From positions 1 through 53,871 of the forward strand of contig LSNS01000011.1 of assembly GCA_003056205.1 (NCBI GenBank): 53,871 bases of DNA, written 5' to 3'. Positions 17,043 to 19,266 of this stretch are shown here, piece by piece. The DNA comes from Parcubacteria group bacterium M6-OD1-4 (GTDB lineage: Bacteria; Patescibacteriota; Patescibacteriia; Patescibacteriales; UBA12465). How positions within the stretch are numbered: position 1 is the stretch's first letter; every line of letters begins with the position of its first letter. Under the pieces are notes generated by a model. That model was given only the letters and a program-made list of their open reading frames with translations, ran no database searches and was not told the origin of the DNA. Both the position numbers and the translations under genes were made by a program.

Positions 17043-17627
17043 CTATTTTTTAAATATTTTTTTTAAAGCCTGTTTAACCCGTTCACCGCTATCTTTAATT
17101 TGAGAGTCTACTAAACTTAAGGCTTGCCGGGCCTCACTGAGAGAATAGCCTAAAGACATTAGAGCATCAATTTCATCACTACTCGCCATTAAACTAAGTG
17201 GATCTAAAGATCCCGTCTGTTGACTGGAGCGAAGAACTTTATTTTTTAATTCCAATACTAAACGTTCCGCAGTTTTCTGACCAATTCCCGAAACTTTTGT
17301 CAGAAGATTAGCATCGCCCCGAATAATAGCTTCACGAATATCTTCTGTCGCCGCCATATTCAAAACACCCAAAGCTGATTTTGGTCCGATCCCAGAAACA
17401 GTTAATAGTAATTCAAATAATTCTAAATCTGCTAAATTCGGGAAACCATATAAATCACTAGCTTCTTCTCGCACCCGATGATGAATATAGACTTCTAACT
17501 CTTGCTTAATTTTTAGATCAGCTAAAAAAGTTTCGCCCATAAAAACTTGATAGCCGATATTAGTAACTTCAATAATTGCATAATTTAAAGTTTTATTAAT
17601 TATTTTTCCTCTTAAAAATGAAATCAT
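17043..17627 (-). CDS. ruvA: Holliday junction branch migration protein RuvA
   Basis: MISFLRG start, LYGF, two HhH motifs (VSGIGPK, VSGIGQKTAERLVLELK) and ALMSLGY. Confidence 0.97.
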   Translation of the reverse strand: MISFLRGKIINKTLNYAIIEVTNIGYQVFMGETFLADLKIKQELEVYIHHRVREEASDLYGFPNLADLELFELLLTVSGIGPKSALGVLNMAATEDIREAIIRGDANLLTKVSGIGQKTAERLVLELKNKVLRSSQQTGSLDPLSLMASSDEIDALMSLGYSLSEARQALSLVDSQIKDSGERVKQALKKIFKK

Positions 17628-17629
17628 AC

Positions 17630-17658
17630 TTGACAAAAAAATTATTAAGTGCTAGTAT
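17630..17658 (+). promoter_or_regulatory. Sigma70-type promoter driving a non-coding transcript
   Basis: TTGACA (17630-35), 17-bp spacer, TAGTAT (17653-58) with extended -10 TG. Confidence 0.7.
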
Positions 17659-17664
17659 ATAGAC

Positions 17665-17955
17665 AAGAAAGCGGCATAAGTATAAGTCGCAAATAATGGT
17701 GGTATTAAACCACCGATAGAGCATGTGGGCAAAATCCCCACTCTGTCATCCGCAGTAAAGGAAGACAGGTTCCGCGTCAAAGTCGGTTATTATATTCTGG
17801 GACTTAAAGCGAAAGAAGTCGAAAAAAATGCTTGAAAAAGCCCCAGTCCCGACGAAGAGAAATGCTCAAAGCACCGCTATATGTTTTTAAAGATGATTGA
17901 TTGTTCTGCAGGACAATTAAATCTATAACTTTAAAAACTATAGCGGTTTTTATTT
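17665..17955 (+). ncRNA. Candidate structured non-coding RNA, family not recognised
   Basis: About nine nested stems, G-U pairs favouring the + strand, a GAAA tetraloop, an upstream promoter, a final hairpin with U-tract, and no credible ORF. Confidence 0.6.
17873..17955 (+). terminator. Long hairpin with U-tract (possibly bidirectional terminator)
   Basis: ACCGCTATA/TATAGCGGT, GTTTTTAAAG/CTTTAAAAAC and TGATTGTTC/GGACAATTA stems, then TTTTATTT. Confidence 0.7.
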
Positions 17956-17967
17956 ATCCTGTAAATA

Positions 17968-19266
17968 TTAAACAACATCGATCTTCCTTCTCAGAACAGT
18001 TAAAGCAGGAATCTTTCCTGTTTTTTTATTTAATTTTAAAACAGCAATTTGACCGCCACCACCACCATGGGCTTCGCTCAGTTCTTCTCCACTGTGAGCA
18101 TCCCATAGTTGTTGAGACTGTACTTTAATTATATCATAATCGGGACGAATAATCTCTACTTCATCACCAACCTTGATTGTATTATGAACTTTAAAATATA
18201 TTAAATTAGCATCCTGGTCTAAATTTTTAAAAACTTTGGCATAACTTTTTAAAGGTTTAAGCACCTGTCCACAGAATTCCCAAGCACTACTATTATGAGC
18301 ATTCGCAATATTTTGATCAGCTTTTTCACCTAATAAAAACCCCGTGGTATAACCCCGTTGGACTAATTTAGTTTCTAACTCGGAATATAAATAATCTATT
18401 TCTTTCTGAAATTCTTGAGGCTTTATTTTTTTATTCAATAGATTTATAGCTCGACGATAGATGCCAACCACATTAGCTTGATAATAAACACTCTTTGCTC
18501 GACCTTCAATTTTAAAACTAGTGACTCCCGCGGCTTTCAATTCTTGAAGATGTTTAATTAAACATAAATCTTTAGAATTTAAAAGATAGGTGCCATGTTT
18601 TTCTTCCACTAATTCTAATTCTTCTTGATGATTGTCAGTTTTTAATTTAAATCTTTGAACATCATAGGGCCAACGACAAGGTTGAGCACAATCCCCTAAA
18701 TTAGCACTCCGATCAACAAATAATTTAGAGAGAAAACAACGCCCGGAATAGGCCATACACATGGCGCCCTGCACAAAATACTCTAATTCCATTTTCGGTA
18801 CTGCTCGATGAATTTCTTTAATTTCTGATAAAGTAACTTCCCGTCCTAAAATAATACGTTGTAAGCCTTGCCGAGCCCAAAACTTAACCGCTGCTAAATT
18901 TGTACAGTTCGCTTGAGTAGAAAGATGAATTTCGGCTTGAGGCCAAGTCTCCTGAACAACAAAAATAATTCCGGGATCAGAAATAATTAAAGCATCCACT
19001 TTTAGCTTTTTAAGTTCCTGTAAATATTGCGGTAATTTTTCAAAATGCTGATTATGAGCAAAAATGTTTAAAGTAATATAGACTTTTTTGTTTTGTTGAT
19101 GAGCTTCTTGAACAGCCTCTTTAATCCCTAATAAATTAAAATCATTAATTCGTACTCGCAAAGAAAAATCAGGAAGACCTAAATAAACAGCATCCGCTCC
19201 ATAAGCAAAAGCGGTGGCCATTTTTAATTTATTACCAGCAGGAGCGAGCAACTCTAATTTAGACAT
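17968..19266 (-). CDS. Peptidase U32 family protein (TrhP/YegQ-like tRNA hydroxylation)
   Basis: ELLAPAG, GADAVY, HLSTQ, CMAYSGRC..S...N.GDCAQPCR and FKIEGR motifs. Confidence 0.93.
   Translation of the reverse strand: MSKLELLAPAGNKLKMATAFAYGADAVYLGLPDFSLRVRINDFNLLGIKEAVQEAHQQNKKVYITLNIFAHNQHFEKLPQYLQELKKLKVDALIISDPGIIFVVQETWPQAEIHLSTQANCTNLAAVKFWARQGLQRIILGREVTLSEIKEIHRAVPKMELEYFVQGAMCMAYSGRCFLSKLFVDRSANLGDCAQPCRWPYDVQRFKLKTDNHQEELELVEEKHGTYLLNSKDLCLIKHLQELKAAGVTSFKIEGRAKSVYYQANVVGIYRRAINLLNKKIKPQEFQKEIDYLYSELETKLVQRGYTTGFLLGEKADQNIANAHNSSAWEFCGQVLKPLKSYAKVFKNLDQDANLIYFKVHNTIKVGDEVEIIRPDYDIIKVQSQQLWDAHSGEELSEAHGGGGGQIAVLKLNKKTGKIPALTVLRRKIDVV

Follow-up and report, generated by a model that had tools for sequence, protein, structure and literature searches.

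A predicted promoter-to-terminator small RNA gene antisense to the U32–ruvA transcript, found in a single Parcubacteria species

The window analyzed here, a stretch of 53,871 nt from Parcubacteria group bacterium M6-OD1-4, carries ruvA and a peptidase U32 family gene next to each other on the − strand (Table 1), in a neighborhood that extends from MreC to IleRS and consists entirely of housekeeping genes on that same strand. In most relatives this synteny is tighter still, with the U32-family gene directly adjoining ruvA. The spacer between the two genes occupies positions 17637-17967, or 340 nt if the ruvA start codon is the ATG at 17627; with that start, the earlier note was right to single out a 340-bp gap in a compact genome, and right as well that this gap is GC-richer than other spacers. 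Crude ORF calling, on which the gap statistics of this genome rest, gives a median intergenic gap of 53-62 nt and 62-72 gaps of at least 300 nt, and GC content reaches 0.37 in the U32/ruvA gap and 0.43-0.46 in its core versus 0.26 for the median gap and 0.374 at the 90th percentile. By fold z-score the gap ranks 9 among the 97 gaps of 180-450 nt in the genome. It is, in short, unusual within its own genome but not unique.

Table 1. Genes and predicted features at the U32/ruvA junction, in window coordinates.
Feature	Position	Strand	Basis
ruvA	17043..17627	−	Pfam RuvA_N, HHH_5, RuvA_C
Sigma-70-type promoter TTGACA-N17-TAGTAT, TG before −10	17630..17658	+	Scores 10/12 with TG
Predicted non-coding transcript, ~290 nt	17662..17958	+	5' end inferred from −10 box, 3' end from U-tract
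5' hairpin 1, GCGGC/GUCGC, one G-U pair	17671..17690	+	Minimum-energy fold
5' hairpin 2, GGUGGU/ACCACC	17698..17714	+	Minimum-energy fold
Multi-branch domain closed by GAGCAU/AUGCUC (17719-24/17863-68)	17719..17868	+	Minimum-energy and centroid folds
Predicted intrinsic terminator: ~31-pair hairpin 17873-17947, then UUUUUAUUUAU	17873..17958	+	−30.6 kcal/mol, z −7.56
Peptidase U32 family gene	17968..19266	−	Pfam Peptidase_U32 and its C-terminal domain

At the ruvA end of the spacer, the + strand carries the TTGACA-N17-TAGTAT promoter announced in the earlier note, together with a TG upstream of the −10 box; its −35 box is 3 nt away from the ruvA ATG. A genome-wide search for TTGACA-N16-18-TANNNT returned 76 matches, 50 of which fall within the ~11% of the DNA that is intergenic, an enrichment of about six-fold. 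When genes were called somewhat differently, there were 48 intergenic matches: 38 had a same-strand gene or tRNA at most 200 nt downstream, and the promoter described here belongs to the other 10, which have neither within that distance. Over promoter and start region, 37 of 45 positions agree with the corresponding region of a NusA-like gene (C6:41181-41208). Judged by its sequence alone, the promoter is of its own genome's type and would provide the independent start expected of a generic stand-alone bacterial sRNA gene.

Minimum-energy folding of the predicted transcript returned both 5' hairpins proposed in the earlier note and, downstream of them, the claimed GAGCAU/AUGCUC helix, which encloses the hairpins GUGGG/CCCAC and CUGUC.UCC/GGA.GACAG. 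A further arm of this multi-branch domain combines GUCGG/CCGAC, CUGGG/CCCAG and GCUU-GAAA-AAGC. These three helices had been described as parts of a sub-junction, the second of them one pair shorter; a fourth, GACTT/AAGTC, is present in the sequence but absent from the fold, and the same applies to GGGACT/AGTCCC, put forward as a competing pairing. The 75-nt closing hairpin with its U-tract was found as described, with TTTTTATTTAT directly 3' of the stem. The U-tract follows the stem on the + strand only; the − strand reads GCUUUGAGC at the corresponding place. Fold z-scores were about −5.1 for the whole gap on either strand. For the core without the terminator (17662-17872), the + strand scored −4.68, with none of 200 shuffles as good, and the − strand −3.51, while the junction domain by itself reached −3.24, equaled by one of 200 shuffles. 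The predicted transcript has an AT skew of +0.2 to +0.3, and its unpaired stretches on the + strand are A-rich. An imperfect internal repeat, AAAGCG..AAGTCG.AAA.AATG, occurs at 17668-17698 and 17806-17830, with copies 79-87% alike and a small hairpin after each; it may reflect a duplicated module or arise by chance in sequence so rich in A.

We compared the region upstream of ruvA across 40 further species from the same genus, one of which has no upstream DNA, leaving 39 informative genomes. In 35 of these the upstream gene, mostly the U32 gene but a NIF3-like gene in some, ends at most 80 nt from ruvA; the remaining four (L027, L028, L030 and L042) have other, unrelated non-coding DNA at this place. 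BLASTN found the element in none of 60 relatives, none of 68 other genus genomes and none of 315 other order genomes, where two candidates per genome were scored. A covariance model (R1), derived from this one sequence and its predicted structure, retrieved nothing credible from 40 genus genomes under strict filters or, with filters off, from 29 ruvA loci and from 20 of 80 metagenome ruvA loci; its best E-values (0.08-0.3) fell on AT-rich stretches outside the syntenic spot. Homologues were likewise not found in phage and plasmid collections, nor did BLASTN (word size 7) or tblastx reveal a source sequence within the genome itself. Among metagenome RuvA relatives, one is 99% identical and the next at most 69%; the contig of the former begins 23 nt before ruvA, which cuts the element off. 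The element is thus an insertion into an otherwise tight U32/ruvA junction and is found in this species only. The earlier note had spoken of a stand-alone structured RNA, possibly CPR-specific. The first half of that description fits what looks like an ORF-free, promoter-to-terminator unit that matches no Rfam family, whereas a CPR-wide class is contradicted by the empty genus and order searches and by the tight junction in most relatives.

Contigs from four DNA runs belonging to three studies of vent-type metagenomes span the element, and because they come from three studies we take it to be real DNA. In hairpin 1, one and the same variant carries 17675 C>T, which turns a C-G into a U-G pair, and 17687 T>C, which turns G-U into G-C, plus loop indels; hairpin 2 shows 17714 C>T (G-C to G-U) and, in its loop, TA inserted after 17705. 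Further changes are 17694 T>C in the linker and, in the junction, 17774 G>A with 17777 T>C on one haplotype, the latter disrupting a helix of 2 bp in the minimum-energy fold. Indels are confined to the two hairpin loops and to the linker that follows hairpin 1, and over 17778-17959 the strain contigs are identical to the reference. All three stem substitutions keep pairing on the + strand, while two of the three would make A-C mismatches on the − strand. These pair-keeping changes are few and all transitions, of a kind that keeps pairing by chance in about half of cases, and they lend weak support to + strand pairing of both 5' hairpins. In run X5, the element has 5 substitutions in 331 nt as compared with 4 in 370 nt of flanking coding sequence; change at the strain level is at least as fast as in the flanks, with the 5' hairpin region the most variable. 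Conserved structured ncRNA classes are defined by homologues with compensatory changes, and here only strain variants with one-sided, pair-keeping changes were found. Since nothing is conserved beyond strains, the candidate does not make a new RNA class: it is an undescribed, orphan candidate for a stand-alone or cis-antisense bacterial small RNA.

A serious rival, which we hold to be rather unlikely, is that the unit is a neutral insert, either a cassette in decay or non-coding DNA captured recently from a foreign or mobile source, in which a promoter-like site and a hairpin occur by chance; it would perhaps be transcribed but have no function. Confinement to one species fits such an origin, as do the unrelated non-coding inserts at the same junction in 4 of 39 relatives, a strain-level change no slower than that of the flanks, and the failure to find either a phage or plasmid homologue or a source within the genome; against it stand a promoter of the genome's own intergenic-enriched type, extended −10 and start region included, a core fold well beyond its shuffles and a GC content far above that of other spacers. 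Its ends also argue against this reading, with no terminal inverted repeats and no convincing target duplication. A 23-nt direct repeat at the insert ends was considered as such a duplication and rejected: its copies are 74% alike, which is chance level for AT-rich DNA, and a binomial estimate gives ~20 such pairs expected in 481 AT-rich bases. A MITE or similar mobile element was discarded too, the sequence being single-copy in the genome, devoid of terminal inverted repeats and with an end-to-end direct repeat at chance level.

The junction itself seems prone to insertions. The non-coding inserts upstream of ruvA in L027 (G032), L028 (G029) and L042 (G031), 150 to ~300 nt in length, are unrelated; that of L027 is AT-rich and repetitive, and that of L028 forms a long palindrome that includes a TTGACA pointing toward ruvA.

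The same spacer could also function on the − strand, as a structured intercistronic spacer or ruvA 5' leader, for example an attenuator or a processing site, a reading that we consider improbable. In its favor, every neighboring gene lies on the − strand; the − strand also folds (z −3.5 to −5.2); a 9-bp helix, CUGGGGCUU/AAGUCCCAG, is perfect there only; and at 17714-17698 that strand has a GGUGGU/ACCACC hairpin followed by AUUAUUU, which would form a terminator-like element ~60 nt before ruvA. However, no TTGACA-type promoter was found on the − strand, where the sole 10/12 site lies inside the big hairpin, riboswitch and T-box models had no match, and relatives have no leader at all. Full-length folds contain five G-U pairs on the + strand against two on the − strand, which bears out the strand preference that the earlier note had drawn from such pairs, and GAAA tetraloops, of the GNRA type, occur on the + strand. 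Given the consensus promoter, the U-tract, the GAAA loops, the A-rich unpaired stretches, the G-U count, the core z-score and the strain changes (both informative substitutions), we judge the + strand considerably likelier than the − strand to be the functional one. A riboswitch or T-box leader was rejected for either strand, the next + strand gene being convergent and the − strand giving no model match.

None of the 4227 models of Rfam 15 matched the window at gathering scores, and a permissive search of 17550-18050 gave at best an E-value of 0.16, with 21 bits against a threshold of 155, in keeping with the claim of an undescribed RNA. ARAGORN detected no tRNA or tmRNA in the window. The genome has its RNase P RNA at C8:8556-8970 (170.7 bits) and its tmRNA at C6:35326-35709 (130.4 bits), and on account of these copies the element was discarded as either RNA; neither the SRP RNA models (RF00169, RF01854) nor the 6S RNA model (RF00013) matched anywhere in the genome. 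The statement that the element is not a tRNA, tmRNA, RNase P, SRP or 6S RNA stands on these copies and on the silent models. A 6S identity was further rejected in view of the predicted fold, which is multi-branched rather than a rod with a central bubble. In the parts of the literature available to us, we found no description of such an RNA. As far as could be seen in the accessible parts of PMC6429828, PMC8632094 and PMC11109978, structured ncRNA candidates have been drawn from long, GC-rich intergenic regions of AT-rich genomes; the element shares their signature of a long GC-rich spacer, a stable fold and no ORF, but the classes presented there are defined by many covarying homologues, of which it has none.

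It is very improbable that the element is instead a highly divergent housekeeping RNA, either a 6S RNA or an SRP RNA with an Alu-like 5' domain. What invites the comparison is that both RNAs went undetected in the genome, that the element is near the long form of bacterial SRP RNA in size, and that two 5' hairpins preceding a long-range helix loosely resemble the SRP Alu domain. Yet the element matches neither SRP model, has neither the symmetric loop of helix 8 nor a suitably placed GNRA motif and folds unlike the 6S rod, and the genus-wide conservation expected of a housekeeping RNA is absent; its absence from all relatives largely refutes the idea. Because Ffh and FtsY, the partners that an SRP RNA would need, were not found in the genome either, and because conservation would be expected of any housekeeping RNA, we do not regard the element as an SRP RNA candidate.

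As an observation in its own right, no signal-recognition-particle system was found in this genome, and the searches made in relatives and in a sample of the phylum were negative too. RF00169 matched none of 41 genus genomes. The SRP54 GTPase domain was not detected over cut-off in this genome or in any of 31 order-level genomes, and the M domain of Ffh (SRP_SPB) was found neither here nor in 121 genomes sampled across the phylum. TIGR00959 reached only 14.6 bits in this genome, not over its cut-off, and the DTAGR motif is absent from all of its ORFs of at least 150 aa. SecY is present (349 bits). Some CPR genomes are reported to have ffh and ftsY, which conflicts with the absence seen here. 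A published statement of SRP absence was not found in those parts of the literature that were accessible.

There is hardly any likelihood that the locus encodes a small protein, or a type I toxin-antitoxin system, through one of the ORFs of 36-42 aa that occur on both strands (one of 36 aa on the +, two of 42 aa on the −, one of the latter with a hydrophobic tail), given that a 2-nt TA insertion in the contigs of all four DNA runs frameshifts both − strand ORFs, and that the + strand ORF begins with GTG, lacks a ribosome-binding site and has undergone two substitutions, both at second codon positions and non-synonymous. No ORF of at least 60 aa lies within the predicted transcript (17662-17958). 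With the − strand frames shifted and the + strand changes non-synonymous, no small ORF is conserved, and the strain variants side with the earlier claim of an RNA gene rather than a small ORF. Promoter and same-strand intrinsic terminator, as predicted, are thus separated by no conserved ORF, which is the arrangement of an sRNA gene.

We favor, with moderate confidence, the reading that the spacer holds a real, orphan small RNA gene candidate on the + strand, antisense to the U32-to-ruvA transcript. The function of the predicted RNA can only be inferred. Going by the sequence signals, the housekeeping-type promoter at 17630-17658 would start transcription near 17662-17665 on the + strand; the RNA of ~290 nt would fold into two small 5' hairpins and then the multi-branch domain closed by GAGCAU/AUGCUC, and the 31-bp intrinsic terminator would end it near 17955. 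The ruvA transcript, whether U32 read-through or the product of a weak internal start, would cross this unit in antisense. On the − strand, the terminator hairpin makes a poor terminator, and internal promoter-like sites are weak only. Since no ruvA transcript could bypass the antisense strand of the unit, cis-antisense control of, or transcriptional interference with, ruvA would be the simplest function. Action in cis, by transcriptional interference and/or pairing with the U32–ruvA intercistronic RNA and the ruvA leader, seems most likely, and ruvA expression would be uncoupled or dampened as a result. A trans-acting or protein-binding role of the folded domain would be equally conceivable. 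Several findings count against the small RNA gene: no search returned a homologue, and with it no sign of long-term selection; strain-level change is not slower than in the flanks; 17777 T>C disrupts a predicted helix; the 9-bp helix is perfect on the − strand only; and eight gaps of the same genome have a more extreme fold z-score.

GadY of Escherichia coli is a cis-encoded antisense small RNA to an operon spacer. The element resembles it in being an independent promoter-to-terminator unit, as predicted, opposite a co-oriented gene pair and fully complementary to the RNA between the two genes. Unlike GadY, it is much longer and more branched, has no sequence relation to it, occurs in one species and is known here from its DNA only. 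If transcribed, it would be a recently arisen regulatory RNA gene, confined to one species of an ultra-small bacterium whose genome has hardly any DNA to spare, and one that splits a conserved operon-like gene pair and runs antisense to a recombination-repair gene. Such a gene would bear on the origin of new RNA genes in reduced genomes, although by itself it is a modest finding.

One of the four relatives with other DNA at the junction, G010 (L030; G010:C13 1285-1500), has a different unit of ~165 nt with the same predicted promoter-RNA-terminator layout, in the same orientation between U32 and ruvA. A distance of 7 nt separates its TTGACA from the ruvA start codon, it folds with a z-score of −3.5, and on the strand opposite ruvA (the − strand of that locus) a U8 run comes after its closing stem. 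It has no Rfam match, occurs in one of 69 genus genomes, its own, and shows no alignable similarity to the element beyond the promoter. RuvA of G010 is 70% identical to that of our species, whereas closer relatives (77-78%) have no insert, so that the two units look like independent gains. We count this parallel case in favor of the small RNA gene. The occurrence in two species of unrelated units in the same orientation, each with the ruvA start codon only a few bases away from its −35 box, could be taken further: mobile or quickly arising antisense cassettes might land at the U32/ruvA junction in this genus and rewire a DNA-repair gene, and the branched 150-nt domain could then represent a new class of ligand- or protein-binding module. 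We regard this extension as doubtful.

Other gaps of the genome also fold strongly. On the + strand of C1:9303-9469, a rod-shaped hairpin of ~125 nt that ends in a U-run lies downstream of a consensus promoter (TTGACA...TATATT), and the gap folds with a z-score of −7.8. The gaps at C10:92038-92316, C10:48290-48647, C12:25359-25559 and C10:22080-22363 (z −9.6, −7.8, −7.2 and −6.6) are ORF-poor and free of tRNA genes, with z-scores beyond that of the U32/ruvA element, and two of these four contain consensus promoters.
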